Positions 6,881-26,096 of a stretch of DNA of 64,000 nt are shown piece after piece; within the stretch, counting starts at the first letter, position 1; each line of letters starts with the position of its first letter. Origin of the DNA: a virus; the IMG/VR virus record IMGVR_UViG_3300021365_000014, positions 2,379-66,378 of that record. One strand, given 5' to 3'. The notes under the pieces are model-generated. The model worked only from the letters and a program-made list of their open reading frames with translations, was not told where the DNA came from and searched no databases. The translations under genes were made by a program, and so were the position numbers.

Positions 6881-6985
6881 TTATTTGTATATGAACGGGT
6901 CTTTCTTCTTCAGCTCTTTGAGCCTCTTCCTATATTTGATCTCTTGTCGAATCTTGTTCCATATGTTCTTAATCCAAGTAAACAT
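6881..6985 (-). CDS. 34-aa basic microprotein ending DPFIYK (not in ORF track)
   Basis: Hand translation: MFTWIKNIWNKIRQEIKYRKRLKELKKKDPFIYK*. TAATG coupling to the upstream gene; stop lies 1 nt before the next ATG. Confidence 0.75.
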   Translation of the reverse strand: MFTWIKNIWNKIRQEIKYRKRLKELKKKDPFIYK

Positions 6986-8950: not shown

Positions 8951-10218
8951 CAGTCTAAAACCCTTTCATCTCTGCTTAATATTTTTTTTATATCCTGTTT
9001 TCGTATCTTATCAATGTTTTCTTGTCTCTGTTTTCCTTTTTTAGTTGGTGTGAAGGTTTCTCTGTTTTTTAAATTCTTTATGACCTCTATCAGTGATCGT
9101 TGTTTTCTTGTGGCCAGAGGTTCGATGTATGCAAGTGCTTCGTCAATTATGGTGTGTAGCAGTTTTTTGGGCAGTGCTAATGGACTTAAAATTTCATCAT
9201 TGCTAAAGGTAAACATGACTTTTGTTAATATCTCTGTGTCCAACTCCCTGCTCAAATCAAACATGTTTTTTAGTTCTAGTAACCCAGGCATTGTGATCGT
9301 ATAATCTAATCTCATCTCTCTGGCTGTTTTTGCCACTGCCATTCCTTCTTTGAAATTGCGTAACCACTGTTCATAGTTTAATCCGTCTCTGATATACTCT
9401 CCAACTTCTCCTGTACCATCTAATGATGAACATATTTGCCAATCCTGGAACTGTGGCAGTAAGTCAAACAGTTTGATTCCCTTGAATGATGTCCTACTTA
9501 GATTCGTGTTGTATCTCACATACACTTCTTTTGCGAATCCTAGTTCTATTATCCTCTGCATGGCCTTCCAATGCATGTCCCACATCAACGGTTCTCCGCC
9601 GCACCAGTATATTTCTTTTATCCTTTTTGTTTCTACTGCTTCAACGAACTCCTGTACAACCTGTGTGTCTTGGAACTTTATGATCTGTTCTCTCAAAGGT
9701 GACGCCATCCATGGTTGTGATTCTTTGCTCCATGTTTTGTTCTTTCTAGATTCTGCTTCCCAACTACTGCTTAACATGTCTCCACACATCCTACATTTGA
9801 AATTGCATAGGTTGTTGAACCTGTAATCAAAACTGATGGTTTGCATTGTGGTGGCGCCTGTTTCGTCCGTGCTGTCGTATGCTTCGTCCACCCTGTCCTT
9901 GAACAATTGATTCCAATATGATCTGTATACATCTGTGTTCAATAACTTGTGATCACACACTTGGCATTCCGGTAATTCTTCACCTGCCATCATACGCAGT
10001 CTAACAGATTTCATGTGATCTGAATTCCAGTGTTCTTTTAGTGTAAGAGGTTTGTATTCCTTAGCATCGTTGCCTGTGTCTATGTACTGCTTGAAACTCT
10101 GTGCAGGCTCTCTGGATGCACAACACAAGCGTCTCTCTGTCTGTGGTGACAGGTACGTGTGCGTCCACGGTGCCATGCAGAATGTTTTGTTGCCTTCGCT
10201 GGGTTTAATTCGCTTCAT
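8935..10218 (-). CDS. radical SAM protein with N-terminal twitch/SPASM-like module (paralog 4)
   Basis: CNFKCRMC, GGEPL, YNTNL, SLDG..EYIRDG; N-terminal CMAPW..LCC..CQVC. Confidence 0.92.
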   Translation of the reverse strand: MKRIKPSEGNKTFCMAPWTHTYLSPQTERRLCCASREPAQSFKQYIDTGNDAKEYKPLTLKEHWNSDHMKSVRLRMMAGEELPECQVCDHKLLNTDVYRSYWNQLFKDRVDEAYDSTDETGATTMQTISFDYRFNNLCNFKCRMCGDMLSSSWEAESRKNKTWSKESQPWMASPLREQIIKFQDTQVVQEFVEAVETKRIKEIYWCGGEPLMWDMHWKAMQRIIELGFAKEVYVRYNTNLSRTSFKGIKLFDLLPQFQDWQICSSLDGTGEVGEYIRDGLNYEQWLRNFKEGMAVAKTAREMRLDYTITMPGLLELKNMFDLSRELDTEILTKVMFTFSNDEILSPLALPKKLLHTIIDEALAYIEPLATRKQRSLIEVIKNLKNRETFTPTKKGKQRQENIDKIRKQDIKKILSRDERVLDWWTSI

Positions 10219-11488
10219 ACAATTCCTTCAATTCAGGAAATGTCTCGAGGATATTTTCGTCTCTGATCACGTCCATCTTTTTCATTGTGTCTTTGAACTG
10301 TTGTATGTCTTTGTTGTTGTCTCTCCTCATCATGTAATTAAGTCCAGATTCGAATCCTTTAGTTGCCCTGGTGAGATTGTCTAAAGGACGCAACCATTCG
10401 AGATGTTTCTCTATTTTTTCTTTGACTTTTTGTTTGTAAGACTCTGGTAAGAGATCTATTCTCTGTGCATACGGATATTGAAGTAGGTTAAAATTAAAGT
10501 CTTGTGGTTTGAGTAGGCCTTGTTCAACCCAATTTCTATGGAAGTCTGATATGTGCAGTGCATTAATAAGTCCAACCGTGCTTGATATGTAGAAATCCAC
10601 TTTGGGGCAAACTTCTAACATTCGTTTTCTGTTTGCAACAACATCTTCCCATACAGTGCCTTTACGCATGTACTCTCCCCTGGCTCCCTCTGCGTCTAAA
10701 CTTGCACCTATCGATACGGAATCAAACTTGTTCCATAACTCTAAGACATCAATGTCTTTATATTTTGTCCTCGTGAAGTTTGTGTTATAAATTAATCTCA
10801 CGTGATACATTTTACGCCTATCTAGTTCTTTCAATATCCTATAGTGTTCTTCCATGATTATCGGTTCGCCACCTGCGAAGTAGAACTGTTCAACGTGTTC
10901 GAACTGTTCCAACATTTGATCCCATATGTCATCACTGCTTCTACCCACCTTCATGATCTTTGCATGACTCGGCGGAGCACCTGTAAGTTTTTTATGATCC
11001 TCGTACCAGTTTGAACTGAACCATGTGCCACAACTCCTGCAGGCCAGGTTACACAGGTTACTGAATCTAATATCCCAATACTTTATAACGAAGTCTGCTG
11101 TGCCGTCAGGCTGTGTGTTTTCTATCATGCTTATGTTGTGTCCAAAGTGTTTGTTCGAACTAAGACGCAGACTGAAGAATCCTGATTGCTCTTGATCATA
11201 ACATTTTGTACAGTGTTTGCTTTTTTTATTAGACAACATGTTTTGTCTTATCTGTCGCATATCTTTGCCATTGAAAACCATCTCCATCGAATCCTTGTTC
11301 AGATCGCCTACAGGATATTTGTCTAATGCGAAACAGCAAGGATATGCCCTGCCATCTGGAAATGCATGTATGTGCAACCAAGGCATCATGCAGAATGATT
11401 CACTGTCTAGCAACAACTCCTTCTCTTTAGGCGTCATGTCTTTGATCTTTAATTTCTCAGGCTCTTTCGCCCCGTACTCATATGCCAC
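10205..11488 (-). CDS. radical SAM protein with N-terminal twitch/SPASM-like module (paralog 3)
   Basis: CNLACRSC, FAGGEP, YNTNF, SLDA..EYMR; N-terminal CMMPW..PCC..CTKC. Confidence 0.92.
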   Translation of the reverse strand: MAYEYGAKEPEKLKIKDMTPKEKELLLDSESFCMMPWLHIHAFPDGRAYPCCFALDKYPVGDLNKDSMEMVFNGKDMRQIRQNMLSNKKSKHCTKCYDQEQSGFFSLRLSSNKHFGHNISMIENTQPDGTADFVIKYWDIRFSNLCNLACRSCGTWFSSNWYEDHKKLTGAPPSHAKIMKVGRSSDDIWDQMLEQFEHVEQFYFAGGEPIIMEEHYRILKELDRRKMYHVRLIYNTNFTRTKYKDIDVLELWNKFDSVSIGASLDAEGARGEYMRKGTVWEDVVANRKRMLEVCPKVDFYISSTVGLINALHISDFHRNWVEQGLLKPQDFNFNLLQYPYAQRIDLLPESYKQKVKEKIEKHLEWLRPLDNLTRATKGFESGLNYMMRRDNNKDIQQFKDTMKKMDVIRDENILETFPELKELYEAN

Positions 11489-12821
11489 GGTACCATTCTC
11501 CTATAATTGGGAAAGTCTTCTCGAAGTTCTTTCCTGATCGTTTGTCGTATTGACTGTAAAATGCTTTGAAGTCTTGCTGTAGTTTACTCTGCTCGGCCGC
11601 ACCCGAATGTGGTGTTTTGACAACATCCAAGTAATCTATAAGTCTCTGTGTTTGATTGATTTCCATGCCCTCTAACCATTTACTATTACTAGTTAAGAAC
11701 TTTACCAAGTCTCCTTTAAATTTATTTCTTAGGTCGTCTGGTAGTACAAGTGGTGATTGGAAACTTGGAAACCTCAATATGTTAAGCGTGAAGTTGACCT
11801 CCGGTCCGTACACTTTACTTGCACTCTTGAACCATACCATTTTCTCCAACAGTTGAGGCAATGACTCCAAACACAGTGCATTTATGGTACACATGTTATG
11901 GATCGCACGTGGAACTTTGTCCACCATCATGTGCAAGAAATTACTATGCCAATCTCCGTACACCAATCCGTCTCTGATGTATTCGGCTTGTCCAAACGTT
12001 GCTTCACAACTTGTGTACAGTTCAAATTTGTCAAACTTCTTTAGTTTTGTTTTGAGTCTGTCAATAATGCTCTGCTTTGCACCCAGGTTACTGTTGATTG
12101 CAAGTGTCATGTCAGGATTCATTTTGTCGCCCTGTGTCTCTATCCAGTCCAACAGTCTCCATAGGTTGGGGGACATCATTGGCTCTCCGCCTGTTATCCT
12201 CAGTTCATCAAGGCTCTTGTGTAGGTCTGTCTCCCACCATTTGTAGAATGCTTCAACGTAGGGATTGGTTTCGTCTTTTTTGTATGGCTCTGCACTTTCA
12301 TGACTGTGAGTGAAGTGATTACGTCCATCGGTTTTCATATCTGTGTATGGTCCTTGCCTCTTTATGTTGTTTGCCCACGTGGAACTGAATGCAGGATTAC
12401 AATATGTACAAGCAAAGTTACAGGTCCTGTCAAATGCTATTTCTAAAGTTTTTAAATTTACATCGGTGTTTGGGTCTGCCTTGTGTGCTTCATCTAATGA
12501 TTCATTTGAGAATATCTTGGATTTGTACACCCTGTCACTGATATTATCTCTGTTGATATCCTCTATCTTCCAGCAGTATTCACACCCTTTTGGTCTGTCG
12601 CCACACTGCATTTGTTTACGTTCCTGTTTCTTTTGTACTGTGTTGTGTATCGCACTTGGGTTTGTTTTGATTGCCTCTAGATCAATCTTGTGTGGAAGTG
12701 GATGGTGACAACTTGTGGTCATACCACTGCCCAACCATATAGTAGCATTGTACCACTTGGCTCCACAGAAACTTGCACTCTTTGGATCCAGTATTTGTTT
12801 TTTATATTCTAAATCATTCAT
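11478..12821 (-). CDS. radical SAM protein (paralog 2)
   Basis: CNFACTYC, ITGGEP, AEYIRDG; N-terminal CGAKW..SCHHP..CEYCW. Start placed at ATG 12821 (ATGA overlap). Confidence 0.92.
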   Translation of the reverse strand: MNDLEYKKQILDPKSASFCGAKWYNATIWLGSGMTTSCHHPLPHKIDLEAIKTNPSAIHNTVQKKQERKQMQCGDRPKGCEYCWKIEDINRDNISDRVYKSKIFSNESLDEAHKADPNTDVNLKTLEIAFDRTCNFACTYCNPAFSSTWANNIKRQGPYTDMKTDGRNHFTHSHESAEPYKKDETNPYVEAFYKWWETDLHKSLDELRITGGEPMMSPNLWRLLDWIETQGDKMNPDMTLAINSNLGAKQSIIDRLKTKLKKFDKFELYTSCEATFGQAEYIRDGLVYGDWHSNFLHMMVDKVPRAIHNMCTINALCLESLPQLLEKMVWFKSASKVYGPEVNFTLNILRFPSFQSPLVLPDDLRNKFKGDLVKFLTSNSKWLEGMEINQTQRLIDYLDVVKTPHSGAAEQSKLQQDFKAFYSQYDKRSGKNFEKTFPIIGEWYRGI

Positions 12822-14188
12822 GCGTTCATACACTCCTTCCAAAATTCTTCCATCTCAGGGAAGGTGTTAAGAAACCTTGTGAGACGTCTGCGATCGTGTT
12901 CGTTAAAAAAGGCGTAAAAGTTTTTTTTGTTTTGCGTACTTGCGTCCGCGTTTTCGCGCCAGTATGCGAGATTCCTCTGCATCTTCTGGATCTCGAAGTC
13001 CTTGAATATGTGTAGCCCGTTCGACTCTCCGGAGTTGGCCTGCATGTACTTGATGTTGTCCTCGTGTATTGATTGGTACGACTCGGGCAACATCGTTATC
13101 TGTTGCCATGCGGGTTGTCTCAGCAGTGGCACGTCAAACCACACACGCTGGTAGGTTTTCGAATACTTGGTTCTCAGTTCCAAGATCTTCTCTAACAGTT
13201 TGTCCATGCTTGTAATACTCAAATTGTTGTACGTGCATATGAAAGTGATTGAATTACGACCAGGTATCCTGTCCAAGAACTCCTCCACGTTGTCCATCAT
13301 GTAGGTGAAGTCCAGGCCGTCACGTATGTACTCAGCACGTTTGCCGAATGCGTCCACGCTCACAAACTGCATCATGTGTTCGACCTTCTCCTGCATACAT
13401 ATCTCCTGTGCCATGTTGAAATATTTCTCCTTCAGTTTCTTGTCCGGAGGACACATGTTGCTGGTCACGTTGAGGTGCAGGTCATCCTTGGGATTGTCTA
13501 TTATGTACTGAAACACCTTGTAGGTATTCACGTCCATCATGGGTTCACCACCGGTCATACGGAAGTGTTTGAGATTCTTGTACAGCGTTGGCCACCATTT
13601 CCAGAACGCGGTCACGTAAGGGTTCTCCTCCCTGTTGGGTATGGGCCTCCTTCGACCTTGGAAGTGTTCTGGTGCGTTGTGGGGAGGGGTGGTAGGATAT
13701 TCGCCGTATCTGTCCACCTCCTTGGCCCACGTGGTCGAGAACTGAGGTGAACAATAACTGCACTTGAAGTTACAAGCGTTGTTGAAGTTCACCTCAACAT
13801 ATCTCGGCGTCCAACTTGTGCTCATTGGATTCTTCCTGATCTGCTCGAAGTCCTGCATGGCCCATGGTTCACCTGAACGATAATGCCTGTCTGACATTTC
13901 GCCCGTGTCCTCCAGTTTCCAGCAGTAAGAACATCCTCCTGGACGTTCACCTTTAAGCATTTTGGATCTTTGATCTAGTTTCTCTGCGGTGTTGTGCAGT
14001 GCCGCGGGATTGGATTTGACTTGGTCAGCGTCTATCTCATGCAGTGGCGGATGGTAGCAACTGTTGGTCAATCCAGTTGGCAGGTGCAGTGAAGTCTGGT
14101 TCCACTTGGCCAGGCACATTGTTGGCGAAACTTCCTGTAGTTTATCCTTGGCCTTCAGTGCGTCTGACTTGTAATCACTTGTACTCAC
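12818..14188 (-). CDS. radical SAM protein (paralog 1)
   Basis: CNFKCSYC, MTGGEP, SVDA..AEYIRDG; N-terminal CLAKW..SCYHP..CSYCW. Start likely GTG at 14188, overlapping the upstream gene's end. Confidence 0.9.
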   Translation of the reverse strand: MSTSDYKSDALKAKDKLQEVSPTMCLAKWNQTSLHLPTGLTNSCYHPPLHEIDADQVKSNPAALHNTAEKLDQRSKMLKGERPGGCSYCWKLEDTGEMSDRHYRSGEPWAMQDFEQIRKNPMSTSWTPRYVEVNFNNACNFKCSYCSPQFSTTWAKEVDRYGEYPTTPPHNAPEHFQGRRRPIPNREENPYVTAFWKWWPTLYKNLKHFRMTGGEPMMDVNTYKVFQYIIDNPKDDLHLNVTSNMCPPDKKLKEKYFNMAQEICMQEKVEHMMQFVSVDAFGKRAEYIRDGLDFTYMMDNVEEFLDRIPGRNSITFICTYNNLSITSMDKLLEKILELRTKYSKTYQRVWFDVPLLRQPAWQQITMLPESYQSIHEDNIKYMQANSGESNGLHIFKDFEIQKMQRNLAYWRENADASTQNKKNFYAFFNEHDRRRLTRFLNTFPEMEEFWKECMNA

Positions 14189-15074
14189 GATCTTGCACTC
14201 CTTTGTTCCTGTGTATTGGCATGACAAACCTGTAGAACCTGCTGTCTTCTTCAGTGAACTCCGCAATAGGTATGTCCAATTGTTGTCTCAGACTGTTACC
14301 GTACATCACAAGTTCGTCATCAATATCGCTTTGTGCTATCTGGTTGTAGTACACCTCCATGCTGTCCAAGTCTCGCACTTTGTAAAGTTCATTGTTTGGT
14401 TCAAGCACTGTGTAGAAGCAACCCATCCTAGAGCCAAGCATGGCATATTTGCCATTCTCGATGTCTGCACCTATCGTACACCATGTGCTCAGAATGTTGA
14501 GGTTGTTCTTCCATATCTGTTTTGAATAATTCTTGGCTGTGATAGGCTTTCCTTTCTCGGTGCTCATCTTCACGCCTTCTCGGTAGCCTGCCACGAATGC
14601 CTGTTGTGGTGTTGCATTGATTACAGTCGTTGAATAACAGTTATGGAGGTTCTCGTGCGGCACTCCCCAGCAGAAGTCTATTTGGTTCTCCTCTGTTTCA
14701 GCATTTTCGTGTGTCTTCATTGACTTGCAGGTTTGCTTGTCCCATCCAACTATGCCACCGTTGCCGTAAACGAGTCCGTTTATGCTGTTCTTTGCCCTCC
14801 ATCTATGTACGGCCTTCCTGTCAGTCTTGTCCCAGGCAAGTGTCTCCAAAAGGAATTTCTCATCTATAATGTTGTCTCCGTCGACACTGATGAAGAAATC
14901 CGTTTCTGCTATGTCGGCCGCGGCCTTGTGTGCGTTGTCAAAACCCACCACTCCGTCAACACGCTTGGCCCATGGCACCTTGTTCTTTAGATCGGCCCAG
15001 TTTTCTTCTTTGTTTGGCTCCTTAAATGAAATGTATACGAAGTCGAGATCGCTTATTCTTGTTCCATTAGCCAT
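14175..15074 (-). CDS. GT-A fold glycosyltransferase-like protein
   Basis: AHKAAA...FFISVDGDN DxD motif in a GT2-like context. Confidence 0.65.
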   Translation of the reverse strand: MANGTRISDLDFVYISFKEPNKEENWADLKNKVPWAKRVDGVVGFDNAHKAAADIAETDFFISVDGDNIIDEKFLLETLAWDKTDRKAVHRWRAKNSINGLVYGNGGIVGWDKQTCKSMKTHENAETEENQIDFCWGVPHENLHNCYSTTVINATPQQAFVAGYREGVKMSTEKGKPITAKNYSKQIWKNNLNILSTWCTIGADIENGKYAMLGSRMGCFYTVLEPNNELYKVRDLDSMEVYYNQIAQSDIDDELVMYGNSLRQQLDIPIAEFTEEDSRFYRFVMPIHRNKGVQDREYK

Positions 15075-15355
15075 GCTTTGCCTCCCTCCACTATACCTGT
15101 GGGCCAGTGTATGTCGTCGTCCTGGAATACGTATCCTTTTTGTGTTTCCTTCAAGATTCTGTACTGCGTATTTGCCTTTGGTTTTGGTTTTAAAACTATC
15201 TCACTATCCTTGATCATTAGATTTTCTTCACCGTGCTGTTGTGCCCACTTTTTTTTCTCTAGGGTAACTTCGTGTTTTTCACCAGCAACAGTGATGTAGA
15301 ATTTTTTTTCAGGTCTACGTGGTGTCTTTGCTAACGCTTCAAATAATCCTGGCAT
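15053..15355 (-). CDS. hypothetical protein
   Basis: In-operon ORF; likely start MPGLFEAL at 15355. Confidence 0.65.
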   Translation of the reverse strand: MPGLFEALAKTPRRPEKKFYITVAGEKHEVTLEKKKWAQQHGEENLMIKDSEIVLKPKPKANTQYRILKETQKGYVFQDDDIHWPTGIVEGGKAWLMEQE

Positions 15356-16133
15356 GTAACTCCTTGTCGTGGTAGTGCCACACTCGATCAACACGTGTCT
15401 CACCTATGTACACCGCGTCTCCGGACTTGTTGGGGTAAAGATAATTGTTCTGATCCATGGCTCTCATTGTGTTATTCACTCCTGGCTTGTGATGTATAAA
15501 TTTAAACCATTCATAGTCGATCAAATCTTTCGCTGTTGGATCCATTATCCTGTAAGCAAGAGCAAACACAACATCTGTGCTAGGATATTTGTCATGACAG
15601 TCTATCAACATACTTGTCTTTACCTGGGTCCAATTTTTTACTATGTGTTTTGCGATTTCATAAAAGTTCTGTGCCTTTTTGCTCCTACGGAAATACATCA
15701 ATCCGTTGTAGATGTTGGGCAAGTGATTTCTCTCGAACAGTTTCCTGTATGGGGTATGTTTAATCACGTTACCTCGATAATCAAAGCAGTCAACACTGAA
15801 TAACAAATCGTGTTGCCACAAGTGATACCACCACCAATCTGTGTTGGTTGTCCATAACATGTCCGCTTCAAGTTTGATTGTGTGAGTGAAAGGGGAGATC
15901 TGGAACGCCTTGTGCTCGTTTGCCCACTTGATGTCATGTGCCGCACTGTCGTCTTGCCTCACCACTTTCACAACATCCACGTGTTCACTGTCGAACTTAC
16001 TTTTCTCATCTGTGATCACGCATATCTTGTTGTGCTTGTTCCAACGTTTTATGCTCTTTGCTAGAGTAATGGACAGTTCAACGTAGTCAGTCTTGTCATT
16101 GTTTTGTGCAAACCACAGAAATCCCCTAGACAT
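15339..16133 (-). CDS. GT-A (GT8/nucleotide-diphospho-sugar transferase-like) protein
   Basis: MSRGFLWFA..Y..LAKSIK..ITD; SPFTHTIKLEADM (DxD variant); paralog of the next gene. Confidence 0.6.
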   Translation of the reverse strand: MSRGFLWFAQNNDKTDYVELSITLAKSIKRWNKHNKICVITDEKSKFDSEHVDVVKVVRQDDSAAHDIKWANEHKAFQISPFTHTIKLEADMLWTTNTDWWWYHLWQHDLLFSVDCFDYRGNVIKHTPYRKLFERNHLPNIYNGLMYFRRSKKAQNFYEIAKHIVKNWTQVKTSMLIDCHDKYPSTDVVFALAYRIMDPTAKDLIDYEWFKFIHHKPGVNNTMRAMDQNNYLYPNKSGDAVYIGETRVDRVWHYHDKELHARII

Positions 16134-16878
16134 TGAATATCTCCTTATTAAGGACATGCACATCTTGATTTTCCACCCATGATATCTGATCATTGTATTT
16201 CCATGCGATACCTTCGTTGGTCATGTCAATCACTTCACAGTCTGGCGGCAGTGTCGGTAGTGCGAACGGCATCTTTTCATATCCAACAAATCCGTTTATC
16301 TGTTGCAGTGCCATTGCGAACAGATAATCATTACGTAGGTTCTTGGCATATATCCTGTACATCTCGTTGAAGTAAGAGTAGTTCTTCTTGATGTATTTTA
16401 CTGTGTCAAATATCTTCCTTACTTTTTCGTTTTTCTTAAACAGTAGCACAGTCGCCCACACCATGGGTATCATGCTCCACCTCCTGTGGTCGAACGTGTT
16501 CCTGCCTGTAAGATCATATGCTGTGTCTGGTACCAGGAAATCATATTCTGTGTCAAAGAGCTCTAACAAGTTATCCGTAAAACAGAAGTAGTCGATGTCC
16601 ATCACAAGTGTTTTGTCATAGGGAGAAAGTTCGTATGCAAGATGCCTGTCCACATTGTTCCAAGATTTTCCTAGTTTAGTGTTACCTAGTTCGGGTTCAA
16701 TAAATTTGTAATTTATTAAGCCTAATGGTTTGATTTTATTGAAAGTTTCAAAGTTAGTGACCACTGTGATTTCTACTTTGAGATTTTTCTTTACTAGGGC
16801 CACACACCTCTCCAGTATCTTGTGATACCGTGTGTGTTCAGTGTCAAAACAGAAAAGCAATACACCCCTGGACATCAT
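16126..16878 (-). CDS. GT-A (GT8-like) glycosyltransferase-like protein
   Basis: MSRGVLLF; SPYDKTLVMDIDY DxD motif; RNDY.F.MAL. Confidence 0.65.
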   Translation of the reverse strand: MMSRGVLLFCFDTEHTRYHKILERCVALVKKNLKVEITVVTNFETFNKIKPLGLINYKFIEPELGNTKLGKSWNNVDRHLAYELSPYDKTLVMDIDYFCFTDNLLELFDTEYDFLVPDTAYDLTGRNTFDHRRWSMIPMVWATVLLFKKNEKVRKIFDTVKYIKKNYSYFNEMYRIYAKNLRNDYLFAMALQQINGFVGYEKMPFALPTLPPDCEVIDMTNEGIAWKYNDQISWVENQDVHVLNKEIFNV

Positions 16879-18210: not shown

Positions 18211-19839
18211 TTATTTTACTCCTATTACGCACTCTGTGAGTGCTGTTTCTTCGTAATATTTATCTTTAATCATACGCCCTATGACGTTGAAATGGTTGCA
18301 TTCGTCCGCTGTGGCCACACGTGCTTCGGCGTTTCCTGCAGAAACTAACCTGTCGCCTGCCTTGCCGGCGCCTTTGAGCTTGACGAAAACACGTCCTTTC
18401 AGCGCCACCATGGGGTGTGAGTCATTGTTTCCCGCCTGTGCGTTCATCAAGAATGCTGGAGATTCGGAGATCACACCAAATACAGCATCTGAAAGCTCTT
18501 CCTGGCATTTGGTTATCTCCGCTTCGCCACCTAATATCACTACGTCACCTACTTCCGTGTCACAATCTGCTTCATAACGCTCTGCCAAGTCAGCGTACAT
18601 GGCACTCGTTGTTGTTGCATGTACCACGTTAGCCCTGACGTCAACAAGAGTGGGTGCTGATAATTCGTTTTGGCCTCCTCCTGACTTGAATGCTGTCCAG
18701 GCTCCTCCCGCATTTCCATACGTTGTTGATCCATCATCAGCAAATGTTTCGTCCCACACCCAGTACAGGTTCTGTTCTGTGGCACTAGATGATTCACCTC
18801 TATTGACTTTCAATCCTGTGAAGTTAGGCATACCTGCGTTTGAAGATACGTTCCTGTTTAATTCTATTATGTTATCTTCCACAGACAGTGTGCTGGTGTT
18901 TATTATTGTATTTGTACCATCCACTGTCAGATCTCCTACCCTCAAGTGTTCAATCCTGCCTTGTGCTCCGTTGATTCTTAATGCTTCTTTAGTGACTCCG
19001 CCATCGTTGACCGTGAATATTATGTCCTTGTCTTGCGTGGTCTGTGCGATTGTGAAATCATCACTGGACAATGTCATCGTAATGTCATTGCCGGCACCTA
19101 GTCTTATACCATCGTCTGTTTGTATTGTGATTCTGCCTGTTGTTGTATCTGCTGAATCTGATCTTAGATAGTTTGCCGCGGCCACTCCGCCCAGTTCGTC
19201 TGAATCCGTTGCCGTGCCTCTGAATTTAGCAGATGTCACTGATGTTGAAAGTTGCACTCCTTGTGCCACTGAGGAGAAACCAGATGCTATCAATGCCGCA
19301 CCGTTTGTCTCCGTTGAACTGGGTGTGAATGCTATGTTTGAGACTACACCAACCACGGTATCATTCGCAACCATTTTTAATATTGATCTATTGACACCCG
19401 TGTTGTCTTCCAAAATTTCACTGGTGAACTGTGTTACACCAGAACCTGCCACCGTTGTAGGACCGATCAAGGTCCAAGCAGTGCCTGAATAAACATAAAG
19501 TTGGTTGTTCGTGGTATCAAACCATAGGTCACCCTGTACAGCATTGGTTGGTGATGTGGCAGAGTTAGTTGGTCCGCCTGCTGGTTTCCATTTATCTCCT
19601 GTCCAAACATTGATTCTTTTATTTGTTTTATCAAACCAAAGTTGTCCTTGCTGTTTGTTCGACGGTGCTGTTGTGTTGTTGAAATTCTCTAGGAGTTTTA
19701 CAAGGTTCTCGTTCAACCTCTCACCGAATCCTGCGTAACCTTTACCTATAAGTGTAAGGTCCGTGGTAGCGACATCGATTGTTCCATCGGCTAGCGTTAC
19801 CAATAAGGTTCCGAATGTGTTGTTTATCTTGTATGCCAT
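18211..19839 (-). CDS. tail fibre-like protein with C-terminal autocleaving chaperone-like domain
   Basis: N-terminus shared with 23156 and 24600 (GKGYAGFGE.LNENL..LLENF, GQLWFD); C-terminal YADLAERYEAD..GVIS..PA.LMN..VAL.GRV (peptidase G2/IMC-like). Confidence 0.75.
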   Translation of the reverse strand: MAYKINNTFGTLLVTLADGTIDVATTDLTLIGKGYAGFGERLNENLVKLLENFNNTTAPSNKQQGQLWFDKTNKRINVWTGDKWKPAGGPTNSATSPTNAVQGDLWFDTTNNQLYVYSGTAWTLIGPTTVAGSGVTQFTSEILEDNTGVNRSILKMVANDTVVGVVSNIAFTPSSTETNGAALIASGFSSVAQGVQLSTSVTSAKFRGTATDSDELGGVAAANYLRSDSADTTTGRITIQTDDGIRLGAGNDITMTLSSDDFTIAQTTQDKDIIFTVNDGGVTKEALRINGAQGRIEHLRVGDLTVDGTNTIINTSTLSVEDNIIELNRNVSSNAGMPNFTGLKVNRGESSSATEQNLYWVWDETFADDGSTTYGNAGGAWTAFKSGGGQNELSAPTLVDVRANVVHATTTSAMYADLAERYEADCDTEVGDVVILGGEAEITKCQEELSDAVFGVISESPAFLMNAQAGNNDSHPMVALKGRVFVKLKGAGKAGDRLVSAGNAEARVATADECNHFNVIGRMIKDKYYEETALTECVIGVK

Positions 19840-19842
19840 TGT

Positions 19843-20025
19843 CTAGTCGTTGTTTGATGCGTTGTCTCTGACTTCTGTCAAGAAACTCACATCGCCCACC
19901 AATTTGATCAAAATAGTTGCAAGTTCAGGTGTCAGCATAGCGTCAATCTTTGCTTCTTCTTCTGACGTCCACGCTGTCTCGTAATTTGCATTGATGTAGT
20001 CTGCGACTTCTTGTTTTGTTGCCAT
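19843..20025 (-). CDS. 60-aa acidic hypothetical protein
   Basis: ORF preceded by an AAGGAG RBS and an AATAAATA late-promoter-like motif. Confidence 0.7.
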   Translation of the reverse strand: MATKQEVADYINANYETAWTSEEEAKIDAMLTPELATILIKLVGDVSFLTEVRDNASNND

Positions 20026-20044
20026 TTAAATGTACTCCTTATGC

Positions 20045-20509
20045 TTATTTATTACGGTTGTCGATCTGCTCATCGTCGGATATCCAAGTTAAATCCTTAG
20101 AATAAGACCCATCTAGGTCTCGTAGGAAAGTCTTCACGTTGCTTTCCGTAAGCACCATATTATGGTATTTTGTGTATCTTTTGTGCAGTGCCTGTTCCTT
20201 GGTAGCAGTGTAAACGAGCTTTATTCCTTTAGTCTTTGCTAACTGCATTAAACTATCTATACATTTCTTGAGGCACTTGTGTGTGTTTCTTGGGTCAGCG
20301 TCCTTGTCTGTGACTATCCATTCCATGAAAGCAAACCGGGTGCCAACGCCTATATACAATCCACCAGCACACACTGGCTTCTCGTCGATCTCCACTATGA
20401 TTCCGTCAGGTGGCAGGCACTCCTTGGGCACCACACCAAATTCCCATTGATTCCACCATGTGGTTAATGTGTCATAATCTTTTTCTCTGTCCCACAATCT
20501 ATCTTGCAT
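20045..20509 (-). CDS. GNAT-like protein (putative)
   Basis: PVCAGGLY..AFMEWIVTD..L...AK.KG.KLVY pattern; size is consistent with a GNAT fold. Confidence 0.5.
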   Translation of the reverse strand: MQDRLWDREKDYDTLTTWWNQWEFGVVPKECLPPDGIIVEIDEKPVCAGGLYIGVGTRFAFMEWIVTDKDADPRNTHKCLKKCIDSLMQLAKTKGIKLVYTATKEQALHKRYTKYHNMVLTESNVKTFLRDLDGSYSKDLTWISDDEQIDNRNK

Positions 20510-21083
20510 TTTTCTGTATCACCATCTTGTTTACATTGAATGTTGACTCAAAACAGTAACTGACTGCTTCTGCTACTTCATCTGCTTTTAATTTTGGCAG
20601 ATTCTCCCAAAGGCCTTTAGTCATGTCTGTGTCTACCACATCTGGACAAACGTCATACACCGATAAAGGTTTAGAAATTAACTCTTCCTGTAATTCGTTT
20701 ATGTATTGTATCAATTCTTTTTTGATTTCACAATATTGTACATATTCGAACTTGTCCCAAATCTGGAATTCATTGTAGTCTGGTTCTTCTTCTATTCCAG
20801 ACGTGCTTGTTATCACTGCTACCTTCATCTTGTCAAACGAATGTCTGCCGTATATTTTTTTAAGAAGGGTCAACTGCCCTCTGTCTGCATGTGCATTCAA
20901 CACTACGAGGCCACAATCTTGTATTTTCTCTAATATCTTTTCTTGATCGTGTACTAGGTCAAAGCCATTACTTTTACTCATACCAACCACGTTGTATTTC
21001 TTTTTCTTGTAGAGGTCGCATATGGCCTTTCCGATACCTCTGCTATGTCCTATGACTGCTATTTTATTTTTTTCTAGATTCAT
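20499..21083 (-). CDS. short-chain dehydrogenase/reductase
   Basis: IAVIGHSRGIG, LNA, YCEIK (YxxxK), PDVVDTDM. Confidence 0.85.
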   Translation of the reverse strand: MNLEKNKIAVIGHSRGIGKAICDLYKKKKYNVVGMSKSNGFDLVHDQEKILEKIQDCGLVVLNAHADRGQLTLLKKIYGRHSFDKMKVAVITSTSGIEEEPDYNEFQIWDKFEYVQYCEIKKELIQYINELQEELISKPLSVYDVCPDVVDTDMTKGLWENLPKLKADEVAEAVSYCFESTFNVNKMVIQKNAR

Positions 21084-21729
21084 ATATGTCCACTAAATTT
21101 TCCAACCCTTCAAAACATTCAGAGTAGTGTTGGTAATATTTGTCAAACTTGTCTTTAGTGTACAGTGATTCTTTGTAAAAGTCAATTAATAACGTGGTTC
21201 TTGGCCCTGGATTGTTGTTGAAACCGTTGTGTAACTGTATGTCTGGTTGAAATATGAATGCTTCTCCTGTCTTCCATGTCATAAGTTCCTGTTTTTGTGT
21301 TTCAATATCCAAAACATACATGCCACTTTGCTCGCCACCCCCATCGTCGAGGCACATCTGGTAGCGCCATCCTCCTTCGTTATCTGTGTGGTTACCAATT
21401 TTGGTATTCGGGCCTACTGTCATTATGGCCACATTTGTTTTGTAGGGAAATTTTCTCAGTATCGAATACAGCATGGGATAGTCATTAAATGATTGTCCTT
21501 CGTGTTCTCCTGATTGTATGCCCAACGCTTGCCATTGCCCGTGTACATAGTCTCCCGACTTGTCATCAAAATCGTCTGGTAGTCCTCTTACACTGTCTGA
21601 GAAGTCCTCTGGATCTAAAAAAGTTTTGTTAGGTTGTGAGTCGAACTCGTGTTTGATGTTTTGCCAGTGTTTGTCTAACTGCCTAAAACATTCGCCTTGC
21701 TGTCCGTGGTAAAAACTTTTATCAAGCAT
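21064..21729 (-). CDS. aspartyl/asparaginyl beta-hydroxylase family 2OG-Fe(II) oxygenase
   Basis: W..IK.EF, GPNTKIGNHTD, WKTGEAFIF..D...HNGFN...R..LLID. Confidence 0.82.
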   Translation of the reverse strand: MLDKSFYHGQQGECFRQLDKHWQNIKHEFDSQPNKTFLDPEDFSDSVRGLPDDFDDKSGDYVHGQWQALGIQSGEHEGQSFNDYPMLYSILRKFPYKTNVAIMTVGPNTKIGNHTDNEGGWRYQMCLDDGGGEQSGMYVLDIETQKQELMTWKTGEAFIFQPDIQLHNGFNNNPGPRTTLLIDFYKESLYTKDKFDKYYQHYSECFEGLENLVDIYESRKK

Positions 21730-23149
21730 TCAGTATATTAACATTTTTATCATGTATCTGTCTATCATGATCCTGCCAATTACTAAAAAATTGTTCGCCG
21801 TGGTTTACTAATTCTTGTTGTTCACTTAATTCAAAGTAGTCTGTGAACTCCGTGTTGTTGATAATAATTCTTCTATTCTCGTTACCGAACACGTACACTA
21901 TAACTTCGTCGTCGCCTAATGATCTTCCTATCCTGCTGTTTTCTACTCTTACCCATGCACCATCTTCTTTGACCATGTGTGTTCCAGATACTTGTATACC
22001 GTTGTAATCATATAAATTGTCTATCAAGAACTTACCTGTCGCAAATACTTTGCCACCGACTGATACCGTGTCGCCTATGTCCACTTGCTCAACTGGTTTC
22101 AATGAACCATCGTGCATTGATATCATTGTGCCTGCTATGAAACAACCACCTCCAGATCCGCCTCCACCTGAACTTGATCCGCCCTCTGCGTCACCGAACC
22201 CGGCCGCTGTTGACACGAAAGATATCCCTGAATTGAACAAGGCCTTCCATACACCGCCTACTTTCATGTAACCTGCTGTCAAACGCTTCCAAGCACCCCC
22301 CACTTTGAAGAATCCTTCCGAAATTTCTTTCCATGCTCCGCCTACTTTGATGTTTCCTTGTACAGCAACGTTGAAAATCACTACTGCTTTTCCATCGCCA
22401 CCTGGCGAACTTGGACTGCCGCCAACTGCCACGCCTGCTGAATAGTGAGATTCACCTGTGCCTCCTGGTGTCACACCTGACCCATCACTAGATGAACCAC
22501 TCGATGGCACTAGATTCGAACCAGACTTACCACCGGTACCACCGTTGTCGCCTGTTCCGCCATCACCTGATGTTCCGCCGTCAACACCACCACCGCCGGC
22601 TCCACCACCACCACCGTCTCCGCTGTGATCCTTGCCGTTCTCTCCCAGTGTGCCTGGTGTGTTTGATGTTGCTGAGTTTGAGTTAATTCCTGCTGTTCCG
22701 TTTGAGCTCTTACCTGCTCCTGCTCCACCTCCGCCGCCTCCTGCGACTGCGATGTCTGTTCCGTCGATCCTTACTAGAGTGGCTCCTCCGCCACCTCCAC
22801 CTGAACCTGAATATGGTTGTGGTCCAGCGTTACCGCCTTCTCCACCTGAATATGCTGTTTTACTTTTTCCGTTAGTACCACCCGGTGCACCACCTCCCGA
22901 TGATCCACCTGCTCCACCACCACCAACTGCTACCTCTAGCGTTGTGTTGATCTGTCCTGATGAGATCGCTAAAGCAGTTTTTTTGACATGGTGTCCTGCG
23001 GCTCCTGTTCCTCCAGGTCCGCCAGCGTCTGAACCTCCGCCTCCGCCTGCGCCTGCCCAAAGGTATACGTCAATAGATGTTGTGCCCGCGGGAATGGTTG
23101 CCTGTTGTAGGGTACCTGTGTAGTTGAATGTCTTTACGACTGTTGGCAT
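21722..23149 (-). CDS. glycine-rich virion/tail protein with C-terminal Hint (hedgehog/intein-like) domain
   Basis: Gly-rich body, 3x KVGGxWK, then GGG|CFIAGTMI...KPVEQVDIGD...VSGTH (Hint blocks A and B). Confidence 0.85.
   Translation of the reverse strand: MPTVVKTFNYTGTLQQATIPAGTTSIDVYLWAGAGGGGGSDAGGPGGTGAAGHHVKKTALAISSGQINTTLEVAVGGGGAGGSSGGGAPGGTNGKSKTAYSGGEGGNAGPQPYSGSGGGGGGATLVRIDGTDIAVAGGGGGGAGAGKSSNGTAGINSNSATSNTPGTLGENGKDHSGDGGGGGAGGGGVDGGTSGDGGTGDNGGTGGKSGSNLVPSSGSSSDGSGVTPGGTGESHYSAGVAVGGSPSSPGGDGKAVVIFNVAVQGNIKVGGAWKEISEGFFKVGGAWKRLTAGYMKVGGVWKALFNSGISFVSTAAGFGDAEGGSSSGGGGSGGGCFIAGTMISMHDGSLKPVEQVDIGDTVSVGGKVFATGKFLIDNLYDYNGIQVSGTHMVKEDGAWVRVENSRIGRSLGDDEVIVYVFGNENRRIIINNTEFTDYFELSEQQELVNHGEQFFSNWQDHDRQIHDKNVNILNA
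22240..22352 (-). repeat. three tandem KVGG(A/V)WK peptide repeats within the Gly-rich Hint protein
   Basis: IKVGGAWKEISEGFFKVGGAWKRLTAGYMKVGGVWK, 14-aa period. Confidence 0.8.
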
Positions 23150-23155
23150 AAAGGA

Positions 23156-24589
23156 TTAAGCCTCCCTTACGAACCAGAGATCTCCGTTTGCACCTTGTCC
23201 AGATGTTGGTGCTGAAGTCTCAACGTATCTGTTTCCTGCGATACTGTTACTGCTGTCATCTGAGATTGTAGATCCACCCCAAAGTTTTAATGATTTAGCC
23301 ACCTGACCCGTAGTTGGTACTGCCACACTGGAATCACTTGTTGATGATGTTATGTCTGAACCGACTGCGGCCAAATTTACGTTTGTCACTGTTAACAAAC
23401 CTGCCGCTGTAGTTTTAAGCACTTTTTCTTTCGCCGAGTTACCGTCTGCAACTGCGTCTGCTAATCTAATTAGTTGTGAATATGTTCCGCCTTGTCCTGC
23501 AGTAAAGTGATTCTCTGATACATCATAGAACAATCTGGCATCGTCTGTGTCTGACGTTTCAATGATCATTCCTGAGTCCGCTTCACTGTTTCCTGAGTTT
23601 AATTTTATGAATGCGTCATCTACAAGATTGATCACACTTCCACTCTTATCAAACTCACCACTAACGGTTAAATTTCCAGTGACAGTCACATCACCAGTGA
23701 TGTCTATTCCGCCATCTGCACCTGTCAACTGTAGAGGCGTCTTTGTTACTCCGCCATCATTGACTGTGAATTTTAAATCTTTGTCTTGTGAAGTCTGTGC
23801 AACCGTGACGTCGTTGCTTGACACAGTAATACTTAATTCTTGTGCATCACCTATGATGACTCCGCTGTCTGTGTCTACTGTTAGTGCACCTGTCGTGGTG
23901 TCCGCCGCGTCTGTTCTTAAAAAGTTACCACCTGCTATCAATGTGCTTGAAGTGTTGGTTGTTCCTGATACATCTATTGTTGCGGCCTGTGTGTTTGTTC
24001 CTTCAAACACCGCACCTAGTGTAGAGTTCAATGTCAACCCTGCTTTGATTGAAGCGAATCCTGTCTGTGTATCACTCGGAGTAAACGTTTCTTTAGAAAG
24101 TATACCAACTCTCGTGTTACCTGCGTACATGGAACTAACAACTTTGTTACCTCCTGAACTGGCCAACGTCTCTATCTTCCATCCTGAAAGTGTCTGTCCT
24201 GATGTGTAAACTGGACCAACCAATAACCATGCTGACCCTGTGTAGACATAAACTTGATCATCATCACTGTCTATCCAAAGATCTCCTGCTGATGCTGAAG
24301 TTGGTTCTGATGCTTGTGCCTTTGCACCACCTGTTGGTTTGAAACTTGATCCATCATACACCTTTAGTTGATTGGTGTTGGTGTCCATCCATAGTTGCCC
24401 TCTGAGAGGTGCTGTTGGTGCCGACGTTGATGCTGTGTTCTCTAATAATTTAACTAGATTTTCGTTTAGGCCTTCTCCAAAACCTGAATAACTTTTTCCA
24501 AATAACTGAAGAGATGTGCTAGTATCTACTGTGCCGTCTGTGATTGTAGCAACTACTGTTCCGTCTGTTTTGTTTATTGTGTACGCCAT
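23156..24589 (-). CDS. tail fibre-like protein
   Basis: Same N-terminal module as 18211 and 24600; ends APTSGQGANGDLWF with no chaperone domain. Confidence 0.75.
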   Translation of the reverse strand: MAYTINKTDGTVVATITDGTVDTSTSLQLFGKSYSGFGEGLNENLVKLLENTASTSAPTAPLRGQLWMDTNTNQLKVYDGSSFKPTGGAKAQASEPTSASAGDLWIDSDDDQVYVYTGSAWLLVGPVYTSGQTLSGWKIETLASSGGNKVVSSMYAGNTRVGILSKETFTPSDTQTGFASIKAGLTLNSTLGAVFEGTNTQAATIDVSGTTNTSSTLIAGGNFLRTDAADTTTGALTVDTDSGVIIGDAQELSITVSSNDVTVAQTSQDKDLKFTVNDGGVTKTPLQLTGADGGIDITGDVTVTGNLTVSGEFDKSGSVINLVDDAFIKLNSGNSEADSGMIIETSDTDDARLFYDVSENHFTAGQGGTYSQLIRLADAVADGNSAKEKVLKTTAAGLLTVTNVNLAAVGSDITSSTSDSSVAVPTTGQVAKSLKLWGGSTISDDSSNSIAGNRYVETSAPTSGQGANGDLWFVREA

Positions 24590-24599
24590 TTGCTTATAT

Positions 24600-26096
24600 T
24601 TAGCACCTTCCTACTACTATATTAATTGTGCCTATTTCCTCCGAATCGTAATTTTCTAACGCTTTTCCTATCACTTCACCAACCTGTGGGTCGTGAGTTT
24701 TCTTTGCTACTCCATGGTTGTTAGGATCCGTAGACAACATATCCCCTTTGATAATGTGTCCTACTACTTTGCAAGGCACTTTACCCATAAGTGCAACAGG
24801 TTGTCCTGCTGATTCTGAATTCATCAAGTAAGCAGGTTTTTCGCTGATCACACCTGCAACTCTTGGGTCATTGCCTTCTGTTGAAATTGTGACTTCCTTC
24901 TCACCTCCGAACACCACGACAGTTCCTACTTCGTACTCTGAGTCAGTCTCATACACCTCAGCCAAGTCAGCGTACTGCGCCGATGTTGCTTTCGCATAAA
25001 CCGTGTTGTATTTCTTACTGCTTGAACCTATGTCGTAAGTTGTTGTTGTATCTGGCAATATCGCTTTTGATGTTAGATTGCCACCCATTGTGAGGGTTGT
25101 CATCGAGTTGGCACCTGTGCTGGTGATGTTACCCGTCACGTTGCCAGTTAGTGGTCCTGCGAACGCAGTAGATGTTGTTGTGCCTGAAATTTCTAGTTTT
25201 GTGGATGGTGTGATAGTACCTATACCAATCCTTGATTCAGAACCGTCTATGGTCATAACGGTAGTTGTTGTTCCTCCGTCGTTGACCTTGAATGTTATGT
25301 CCGTGTCCTGCACAGTGTTAGAAATTATTCCTCCAGATGCGTCCACCGTAACAGTTATATCTGAGTCAACACCTATGATCAATCCTGAGTCATTGGCTAT
25401 ACTGATCGTGCCTGATGTTGTGTCATTTGCGTTGGATCTAAAGAAGTTGGCCGCCGTTACCCCGCCCAATGCGTCTGCGTCAGTGGCCGTACCTGCAAAT
25501 TTTAAATCTGCTATGTCTGTTGATAAACTTATTCCTTTTGTTATCGACGAGAAACCTGCTATCGCTGATTTAGGAGTGAAAGTGTCTTCAGATATTATCG
25601 CTATGAGATTACCGTCATTGAATAATTTTGTTATGTTCTGTGATCCATCACTTGAATCCAATATAGTGTCGTATGTGAATCCATTCGTTGTTCCTGTGGA
25701 ACTAGGTGGTCCTACCAACACCGAAGATGTTCCGCTGTAGTAGAACATCTGTCCTGTGCCTGAATCTATCCAGATGTCTCCAGCCGCCATGTTGGATGGT
25801 GCATCTGATTGGTATGGTGCACTACCTCCCGCTGTCTGGAACGCTGAGCCGTTGTACACTTGTAATTTAGCATTCGTTGAGTCCCACCACAACTGTCCTT
25901 CTATGGGTTTGGTAGGAGCCGACGAGTTTGAAAAATTTTCTAACAAGTGCAGGAAATTCTCTGCTATGGATTCCCCATAACCTGCATATCCTTTACCTAT
26001 GAAACTGATATCAGTCTGAGTGTTTAGCACACCGTCCTGTACAGTGTACTGGTTCGGCGAACTAGAACTATTTGTCTTGTTTACAGTGTATGCCAT
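24600..26096 (-). CDS. tail fibre-like protein with C-terminal autocleaving chaperone-like domain
   Basis: Shared N-terminus; C-terminal SAQYADLAEVYETD..GVIS.KPAYLMN..VALMGKVPCKV. Confidence 0.75.
   Translation of the reverse strand: MAYTVNKTNSSSSPNQYTVQDGVLNTQTDISFIGKGYAGYGESIAENFLHLLENFSNSSAPTKPIEGQLWWDSTNAKLQVYNGSAFQTAGGSAPYQSDAPSNMAAGDIWIDSGTGQMFYYSGTSSVLVGPPSSTGTTNGFTYDTILDSSDGSQNITKLFNDGNLIAIISEDTFTPKSAIAGFSSITKGISLSTDIADLKFAGTATDADALGGVTAANFFRSNANDTTSGTISIANDSGLIIGVDSDITVTVDASGGIISNTVQDTDITFKVNDGGTTTTVMTIDGSESRIGIGTITPSTKLEISGTTTSTAFAGPLTGNVTGNITSTGANSMTTLTMGGNLTSKAILPDTTTTYDIGSSSKKYNTVYAKATSAQYADLAEVYETDSEYEVGTVVVFGGEKEVTISTEGNDPRVAGVISEKPAYLMNSESAGQPVALMGKVPCKVVGHIIKGDMLSTDPNNHGVAKKTHDPQVGEVIGKALENYDSEEIGTINIVVGRC

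Follow-up and report, generated by a model that had tools for sequence, protein, structure and literature searches.

What becomes of a virion protein that ends in a Hint domain seemingly unable to splice, and why do genes for enzymes follow so closely behind it? The question is raised by a locus in a viral stretch of 64,000 nucleotides, positions 2,379 to 66,378 of the record IMGVR_UViG_3300021365_000014, and this whole stretch is what is meant below by the window. A Gly-rich protein of 475 residues encoded there carries a Hint domain at its C-terminus, and its gene is followed on the same strand by those for an oxygenase, a short-chain dehydrogenase/reductase (SDR) and a 154-residue protein, p154, which is predicted to have the fold of the GCN5-related N-acetyltransferases (GNAT). 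Comparison with related loci suggests that the Hint cap and its dedicated GNAT partner, accompanied here by the oxygenase and the SDR, act as a unit in which p154 steers an amine onto a protein thioester. This reading is drawn from genes and predicted structures, and its chances may be put just short of even.

The original prediction, made from the letters of the window, described a Gly-rich protein whose flexible linker runs into the motif CFIAGT, and inspection of the open reading frames (ORFs) found this arrangement exactly, down to the position of the Cys codon (see the table). Gly accounts for 107 of residues 1-336 (32%), and the linker ...GGSSSGGGGSGGG, the end of which reads ...GGGGSGGG, joins directly to CFIAGT. 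The block B motif SGTH and the closing FTDY were located at residues 388-391 (nucleotides 21977-21988) and 435-438 (nucleotides 21836-21847), respectively, and the extension that had been put at about 35 residues measures 37. A search with the whole protein returned 600 homologues at E <= 0.001. Those listed, 120 in number, are full-length proteins of 473-479 residues that come from marine metagenomes and are 76-89% identical. The family PF21722 is precomputed on three of these 120, and PHROG matches on the cargo, the part of the protein preceding the Hint domain, are confined to its KVGGxWK repeats.

The Hint domain falls below the gathering thresholds of Pfam (Hom_end_hint, 17.9 bits against 32.1; Hint_2, 16.4 against 28.4; Hint, 14.9 against 29.7), and these matches, with E values of 0.0033, 0.012 and 0.021, cover block A, its first ~30 residues, only. 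A sequence search of the PDB gave weak matches to the PI-SceI and VMA1 inteins and to NEQ068. An AlphaFold2 model based on an alignment of 89 sequences reached a mean predicted local distance difference test score (pLDDT) of 88.6 and a predicted template modelling score (pTM) of 0.81, with a beta-core at residues 8-110 of the model (pLDDT mostly >90) and a long helix at 113-146. When this model was compared with the PDB using Foldseek, all nine matches at E <= 0.001 were inteins, bacterial intein-like (BIL) domains or Vint domains, and the weaker matches listed were also Hint domains. The BIL2 domain (6y75/6tmm) came first (E 3e-5), other top matches being a class 3 split intein, the Tetrahymena Vint domain 8r2c, the Clostridium thermocellum BIL domain 2lwy and many inteins; Hedgehog (1at0) was a weak match, at rank 43 (E 0.021). 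The model marks the domain as a genuine Hint fold.

The residues expected to matter for Hint chemistry are conserved in part and altered in part. Cys336 is invariant in two family alignments (A1 and A3), and in two others (A2 and A5) its conservation is 90% or higher. Block B reads S-G-T-H, Ser replacing the Thr of T-x-x-H, and its His is invariant in alignments of 26, 37 and 89 rows. The Asp of F-T/A-D-Y is invariant or nearly so in the family alignments, and Asp437 occupies the place of the intein Asn, beside the active site. In the tail helix the positions E, Q, L, F, W and N are conserved across the family, and the extension was matched in most of 150 listed relatives. The canonical end of a splicing intein, in which His-Asn is followed by Cys, Ser or Thr and a C-extein, is absent; Thr436-Asp437-Tyr438 is followed by the 37-residue tail only. 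Judged by its sequence, the domain is not a splicing intein. With neither His-Asn nor a downstream nucleophile it would be unable to splice, and a thioester formed on it would therefore have to be resolved by an outside nucleophile. The earlier view of a Hint domain without the terminal Asn is thus borne out by the model and the Foldseek matches, the missing His-Asn and the conserved extension.

Used as the query of an exhaustive HMMER search, the C-terminal 147 residues of the protein defined a family of 1761 representative proteins (50%-identity clusters) at E <= 0.001, with 107 at E <= 1e-30. Nearly all of the 150 listed matches sit at the extreme C-terminus, on proteins of very different lengths, a pattern of sequences that identifies the Hint module as a C-terminal cap shuffled among cargo proteins. 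In small-phage loci the Hint-capped proteins adjoin genes for portal, terminase, major head or ejection proteins or genes bearing a transglycosylase, and these neighbours indicate that caps are carried by several kinds of particle protein. Many members (P0123-P0128 and P0139-P0142, as well as L127, L141 and L152) have a second Hint domain directly upstream, in which ...VVHNKG is followed by the CF of the terminal Hint; the upstream copy of these tandem domains keeps His-Asn. A DNA search of cultured phages with the 3.3-kb region found no match, and a protein search of them with the Hint module gave two weak matches, both to block A only and both in Vibrio phages. A pattern scan of the genomes of 185,579 prokaryote species, which reaches close relatives only and does not thereby prove the family absent from cells, returned a single close relative (L242), 86% identical to the Hint module of the window. 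Its contig, of 15 kb, was assigned to a metagenome-assembled genome labelled Verrucomicrobia, and is probably phage DNA binned with a cellular genome.

A homologue of p154 accompanies the Hint module almost without exception. The loci were collected by pattern-seeded scans reaching moderately distant relatives only; contigs overlap between scans, and the counts are per scan and not additive. Among 24 viral loci encoding relatives of the whole Gly-rich protein, 20 share one gene order (Hint, oxygenase, SDR, p154, a 60-residue gene and a fibre gene), one is truncated by the end of its contig and three (L021, L024 and L025) are Hint-less. Taken from the Hint side, the best 80 of 177 confirmed matches comprise 38 loci with the synteny of the window (35 with all four genes, three cut by contig ends) and 42 with another cargo and neighbourhood. 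In 41 of these 42 a p154 homologue (34-62% identical) stands at the end of the Hint gene, the sole exception being a contig that ends 85 nt past the Hint stop. From the p154 side (the best 80 of 179), a Hint module is found upstream on the same strand in 79 of 80 loci, adjacent in 42 and at ~1.2 kb in 37, and the contig of the remaining locus begins 70 nt before p154. The Hint and p154 ORFs were both called in 36 loci, in every one of which they overlap. A much more distant Hint subtype, at ~40% identity, was found in seven loci; a p154-like gene follows directly in five, the five of FADYGEV type (hidden Markov model (HMM) E 1e-16 to 1e-19), another has the full four-gene cassette and one, L190, is without p154. 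Many small clades recur in both the Hint tree and a quick version of the p154 tree, with differing cargo proteins, and the cassette is retained across a large and diverse phage group at 64-98% protein identity. The co-occurrence across phages that the original prediction had proposed as a check thus proves positive for the GNAT gene, in both directions, and the gene neighbourhoods point to p154 as an almost obligatory partner of the Hint module.

The nature of p154 emerges from its predicted structure. The model, built with 24 relatives, has a pLDDT of 87.9 and the strand-helix order of GNAT proteins, and Foldseek returned 340 PDB matches at E <= 0.001. Among the matches listed TM scores were 0.54-0.67 and every one was a GNAT, N-terminal acetyltransferases being included; by its model, p154 has the GNAT fold. 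None of the 24 p154 members matched a GNAT family of Pfam at E <= 1, and a profile search of PDB sequences with p154 found nothing. The nearest ESM Atlas clusters are all viral, and one related cluster has PF00583 on 12% of its members. The pyrophosphate loop of GNAT enzymes, Q/R-x-x-G-x-G/A, lies between strand 4 and helix 3. In the corresponding segment of p154, as read by eye in two alignments (A4 and A8), there is no conserved Gly of this loop, which binds acetyl-CoA. Cys47 of p154 was considered as a catalytic thioester acceptor and rejected; it is invariant in close relatives but Ala in a distant group.

How might the two proteins work together? The likely first step, judging by the conserved first Cys, the His of block B and the fold, is an N-to-S acyl shift at Gly335/Cys336. 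Cys336 would attack the carbonyl of Gly335, leaving the Gly-rich cargo held as a thioester on the Hint domain; an outside nucleophile would then resolve the thioester, and the Hint domain with its helix (~140 residues) would be discarded. The usual reaction of GNAT enzymes is the transfer of an acyl group from a thioester to an amine. The GNAT partner, whose frame overlaps or abuts that of the Hint protein so that the two would be produced together, would act on the thioester intermediate, and its place in the same process is argued for by the two-way linkage, the overlapping frames, the joint absence of the genes described below and the shared small clades. Most likely p154 would direct onto the thioester an amine from a lysine or from the N-terminus of a protein, such that the cargo would be coupled and not merely cut; less likely, it would trap or regulate the thioester intermediate. 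An amine acceptor is favoured both by this chemistry of GNAT enzymes and by the precedent of BIL2 at the BUBL1 locus of Tetrahymena thermophila, where, as passages of PMC8616854 describe it, the upstream domain is passed without ATP from a thioester to Lys, forming an isopeptide bond.

The remaining two enzymes appear to be accessories. The 221-residue protein matches PF05118 (Asp/Asn beta-hydroxylase) with 44.7 bits against a cut-off of 22.6 (E 1.6e-11), and its H114, D116, H167 and R177, which we take to be the metal and 2-oxoglutarate ligands, are invariant in five sequences down to 50% identity. AspH-type oxygenases of the PF05118 family mostly hydroxylate protein side chains or lipid A. 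The 194-residue SDR matches PF00106 with 36.6 bits against 26.6 (E 4.3e-9), and the motifs GH[ST][RK]GIGK, TSTSG and Y-x-x-x-K are conserved in nine sequences. In viral loci of the oxygenase clade, Hint lies directly upstream in 47 of 47, and SDR then p154 lie downstream in 44, the other three being cut by contig ends; the clade rides on at least two unrelated cargo proteins. Neither an oxygenase nor an SDR match was found in any of the 42 distant Hint-p154 loci, and the two genes are an optional insert between Hint and p154. Two loci (L235 and L237, positions 5153-5887) have an extra oxygenase paralogue of 244 residues, 33% identical, between SDR and p154, giving a five-gene cassette. Since the oxygenase clade turned up in no other setting and accompanies two unrelated cargo proteins, the chance that the pair are optional tailoring enzymes of the Hint-p154 pathway seems somewhat better than even. 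The cassette originally described, of hydroxylase, SDR, GNAT and microprotein, is therefore to be redrawn: the GNAT is its core partner and the oxygenase clade does keep to the space between Hint and GNAT, but oxygenase and SDR are optional and the microprotein, the 60-residue gene, lies outside it.

The locus exists in three states: with Hint, oxygenase, SDR and p154, as in the window; with Hint and p154; and with neither, the cargo then bearing another C-terminal domain. The second state is seen in four related giant-phage contigs that were compared (L127, L129, L141 and L152), where the orthologous locus is without oxygenase and SDR and runs fibre gene, Gly-rich protein with Hint, p154, 60-residue gene, fibre gene and the next genes. 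The third is seen in the three Hint-less loci, in which the same cargo and Gly linker continue into a domain of ~130 residues beginning RVICTWL..., for which no Pfam, PHROG or named Atlas family was found. Hint, oxygenase, SDR and p154 are all missing there, and the 60-residue gene and the fibre gene are kept. Retained in the two-gene loci as well, the 60-residue gene is independent of the cassette. In a further locus, L064, the RVICT domain is a free-standing ORF directly after p154, a weaker echo of the split pattern of the virion protein VrlC.

That pattern belongs to a second lineage, represented among the 47 oxygenase loci by the seven loci L231-L237 (L189 and L236 are one contig). Each of its four cassette members (Hint, oxygenase, SDR and p154) shows 47-49% identity to its counterpart in the window. 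A single horizontal origin of the four-gene cassette was considered and rejected, as the two four-gene lineages are not grouped on the trees. The cargo of the second lineage is the N-terminal part (>1150 residues) of VrlC, and the next gene after p154 encodes the C-terminal part; the PHROG profile positions of the two parts are contiguous. In Pelagibacter phage HTVC008M, VrlC is one coding sequence of 2001 residues (KC465899.1, 37918-43923), to which the parts align up to residue 1456 and from residue 1479. The same split occurs in L169, where the gap holds Hint and p154 only. The C-terminal part has no intein C-half, its homology to intact VrlC starting at its residue 6, and no match to the Hint HMM was found in it. 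Two generalisations were rejected. One was that the gene next to p154 always supplies the half missing from the cargo, which is true of VrlC but is contradicted by the phage HTVC033P discussed below; the other was that a Met-Ala start marks the product of the next gene as the acceptor, for although most of these genes do start so, the three fibre genes of the window and other neighbouring ORFs do too.

Several observations weigh against a concerted action of p154 and the Hint thioester. Neither the Hint domain nor p154 is recognised by Pfam at its thresholds, and at L190, one of the distant Hint loci, p154 is missing. More remote p154-like genes, at 27-33% identity, are present in 78 records of cultured phages, most of which infect Flavobacteriia. 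Two of these were examined (Cellulophaga phage phi46:3 and Maribacter phage Panino), and in both the p154-like gene follows a structural gene without Hint; this GNAT family can thus work without a Hint thioester. The change of Cys47 to Ala means that p154 has no universal catalytic Cys. The three Hint-less loci may represent one event and, since neighbouring genes can go or come by a single recombination, they prove little on their own. In HTVC033P, a cultured podophage of the pelagiphages, a homologue of the cargo gene and one of the gene after p154 are simply adjacent, with neither Hint nor p154 between them, and ligation to the downstream product can therefore be no general rule. Finally, neither the Hint tree nor the quick p154 tree unites the four-gene cassettes in one clade.

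The main rival, which we consider somewhat unlikely, takes the Hint domain and its helix as a plain self-cleaving cap. They would constitute a removable module for folding, assembly or targeting, cut off by hydrolysis of the thioester, and the enzymes would modify other targets (acetylation or hydroxylation of virion proteins, for instance) and be merely co-transcribed. Removable C-terminal modules are in use at the locus, where a neighbouring fibre ends in a Peptidase_G2 intramolecular chaperone (IMC), and type A BIL domains reportedly cleave at their N-terminus. The p154-like GNATs adjoining structural genes without Hint and the adjacent genes of HTVC033P speak for this rival too. It leaves unexplained, however, why close relatives of p154 are nearly always found with Hint (79 of 80), in overlapping frames, why the oxygenase clade is confined to the interval between Hint and p154 (47 of 47) and why the enzymes are jointly absent when Hint is absent.

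Coupling to an amine, which is the reading preferred here, can be taken further. In its fullest form, which is unlikely, Hint and GNAT would be a two-protein, ATP-independent protein ligase: p154, built like an N-terminal acetyltransferase, would transfer the whole virion protein from the thioester at its C-terminal Gly onto the N-terminus or a lysine of another protein, joining virion proteins post-translationally, and would in the VrlC lineage rejoin the halves of the broken gene. Tailoring of the junction or of the acceptor would fall to the oxygenase and SDR.

The original prediction had raised a Hedgehog-like route, in which the thioester would be resolved by a small-molecule nucleophile made or tailored by the oxygenase, SDR and GNAT, leaving a small adduct on the C-terminus of the cargo; on such a route the 37-residue helix would serve as the region for recognition of the adduct. 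The G/CF motif at the cleavage site and the conserved extension after the core do resemble Hog proteins, the enzymes are strictly linked to the Hint gene, and the invariant Asp of FTDY stands near the active site where the intein Asn would be. Oxygenase and SDR are, however, missing from all 42 distant loci and from the four orthologous two-gene loci, so that the core reaction would be independent of their product. The low rank of 1at0 among the structural matches and the preference of PF05118 enzymes for protein residues or lipid A also count against the route, and three enzymes are few for the dedicated synthesis of a metabolite; it now looks improbable. A selfish, intein-like mobile cassette, in which Hint would remove the scar of an element lying at the 3' end of or inside virion genes while p154 and any extra genes served the element, would suit the many unrelated cargo proteins, the break of VrlC at its linker, the clades shared by Hint and p154 over differing cargo and the split genes with an inserted element that are known for split inteins (PMC2677866), yet it is very improbable given a cassette without nuclease or recombinase, the GNAT fold of p154, a C-terminal half of VrlC without a C-terminal intein part and the stable retention of the module across a diverse phage group.

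Known systems offer partial parallels. BIL2 (6y75, 6tmm) and the phage domain, its best structural counterpart, are both non-canonical Hint domains. BIL2, however, sits between two ubiquitin-like domains and keeps its C-terminal Asn, having been solved as the C1A-N143A mutant, whereas the phage module, 18-19% identical to it in the structural alignment, is terminal, ends in Thr-Asp-Tyr, has a 37-residue helix and is accompanied by a separate GNAT-fold gene. The C. thermocellum BIL domain 2lwy (E 1e-3, TM 0.57-0.60) is likewise a small Hint fold in a non-intein setting. BIL domains reportedly cleave or splice without a nucleophile in the C-terminal flank (work of Amitai in 2003 and Dassa in 2004). 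The published types, however, come from bacterial secreted or surface proteins, whilst the phage family has its own conserved tail helix, and no obligate GNAT, oxygenase or SDR partner of BIL domains was described in the literature searched. With Hedgehog and the Hog proteins the phage protein shares a Gly/Cys-Phe junction, an extra region after the Hint core and, as predicted for the phage, a thioester resolved by an outside nucleophile. It differs in the weakness of the structural match, in lacking similarity to the sterol-recognition region and in having a separate GNAT-fold protein as helper, which suggests an amine and not a sterol hydroxyl as the nucleophile.

Dassa et al. 2009 (PMC2677866) describe fractured genes in which split inteins are accompanied by a free-standing endonuclease. 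These genes resemble VrlC, which is also found in two ORFs, the first ending in Hint, with foreign genes between; the phage Hint is nevertheless complete, the second half has no C-intein and the intervening genes encode a GNAT, with or without oxygenase and SDR, and not an endonuclease. Intramolecular chaperones of the Peptidase_G2/S74 kind are also self-removing C-terminal modules on proteins of fibre loci, but with an unrelated fold and chemistry, no thioester and no partner enzyme. A full-text literature search, outside of which lie most subscription journals, found no paper pairing a Hint or intein-like domain with a phage GNAT gene and none on VrlC and inteins. The Hint/BIL domain itself is known; the two- to five-gene cassette around it is apparently undescribed.

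In the window, the Hint-bearing gene belongs to a long minus-strand block of virion genes, and the cassette is surrounded by three paralogous fibre-like genes, an ORF of 4341 residues and a baseplate-spike-like gene. The window covers most of a viral contig of 66,378 bases, for which CheckV gives a completeness of 19%, suggesting that the source genome is very large, ~350 kb by simple arithmetic. The four genes that the original prediction had placed, overlapping or adjacent, before the fibre genes resume were recovered in the same order and on the same strand: the oxygenase, SDR and p154 genes overlap their predecessors by 8, 20 and 11 nt, respectively, and the 60-residue gene follows after a gap of 19 nt. 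The coordinates are collected in the table.

Table. Features of the Hint-p154 locus in the window, with the alternative C-terminal domain as it occurs in related loci
Feature	Sequence	Position	Strand	Basis
Gly-rich protein with C-terminal Hint cap, 475 aa	window	21722..23149	-	ORF; stop codon 21722-21724
Cargo part, residues 1-335: Gly-rich domain, three KVGGxWK repeats (~residues 264-307), Gly/Ser linker ending at Gly335	window	22145..23149	-	composition and motif positions
Cys336 codon (TGT), predicted nucleophile, Hint position 1	window	22142..22144	-	conservation in alignments
Predicted Hint core, residues 336-438: block A CFIAGT, block B SGTH (His391 invariant), end FTDY	window	21836..22144	-	AlphaFold2 and Foldseek
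C-terminal extension, 37 aa, residues 439-475, single long predicted helix ending ...NILNA	window	21725..21835	-	model and family conservation
AspH-type 2-oxoglutarate/Fe(II) oxygenase, 221 aa, accessory cassette gene	window	21064..21729	-	PF05118
Short SDR-type oxidoreductase, 194 aa, accessory cassette gene	window	20499..21083	-	PF00106
p154, predicted GNAT-fold protein, 154 aa, core partner of the Hint module	window	20045..20509	-	fold model and synteny
60-aa gene, conserved neighbour outside the cassette	window	19843..20025	-	retained in Hint-less and two-gene loci
Next fibre gene, 542 aa, C-terminus a Peptidase_G2 IMC module	window	18211..19839	-	Pfam match on last 149 aa
Fibre-like paralogue	window	23156-24589	-	ORF
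Fibre-like paralogue, 498 aa	window	24600-26096	-	ORF; PHROG tail-fibre C-terminal families
RVICTWL/RVICTEL... domain, ~130 aa	L021	~7003-7398		
RVICTWL/RVICTEL... domain, ~130 aa	L024, L025	~6979-7401		
RVICTWL/RVICTEL... domain, ~130 aa	L064	4979-5371		

The three fibre paralogues have an N-terminal domain in common, and those of 498 and 542 residues share PHROG tail-fibre C-terminal families. The Peptidase_G2 IMC match on the latter (E 4.6e-7, 29.9 bits against a cut-off of 25) marks its C-terminal module, by sequence, as a self-cleaving intramolecular chaperone, unlike Hint. Just outside the fibre locus, at 8935-14266 on the minus strand, lie four tandem paralogues of 427, 427, 454 and 482 residues that match Radical_SAM, two of them also SPASM. 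Radical SAM enzymes with SPASM domains are often modifiers of peptides or proteins, and the four genes hint at a second sign of heavy post-translational chemistry in this phage. Adjoining the fibre locus, at 14175-16878 on the same strand, are genes of 299, 284 and 250 residues for which no Pfam match was found; a PHROG match, to a family of unknown function, was found for the 284-residue product only.

For the biology of marine phages, pelagiphage relatives among them, the caps are of interest since, in the viral loci examined, they occur in capsid, ejection-protein, baseplate and fibre neighbourhoods, and the maturation of these abundant Hint-capped particle proteins is apparently undescribed. 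The window adds a natural series at one locus, from no cap, through cap and GNAT, to cap, GNAT, oxygenase and SDR, together with a second lineage whose essential virion gene VrlC is interrupted by the cassette. If the cap only removes itself, it would represent a new family of removable assembly modules. If it is true that the GNAT steers the thioester onto an amine, this would be a new energy-free form of protein coupling, relevant both to virion assembly and to protein engineering, where it may provide an alternative to ligation of the sortase, split-intein or SpyTag type.

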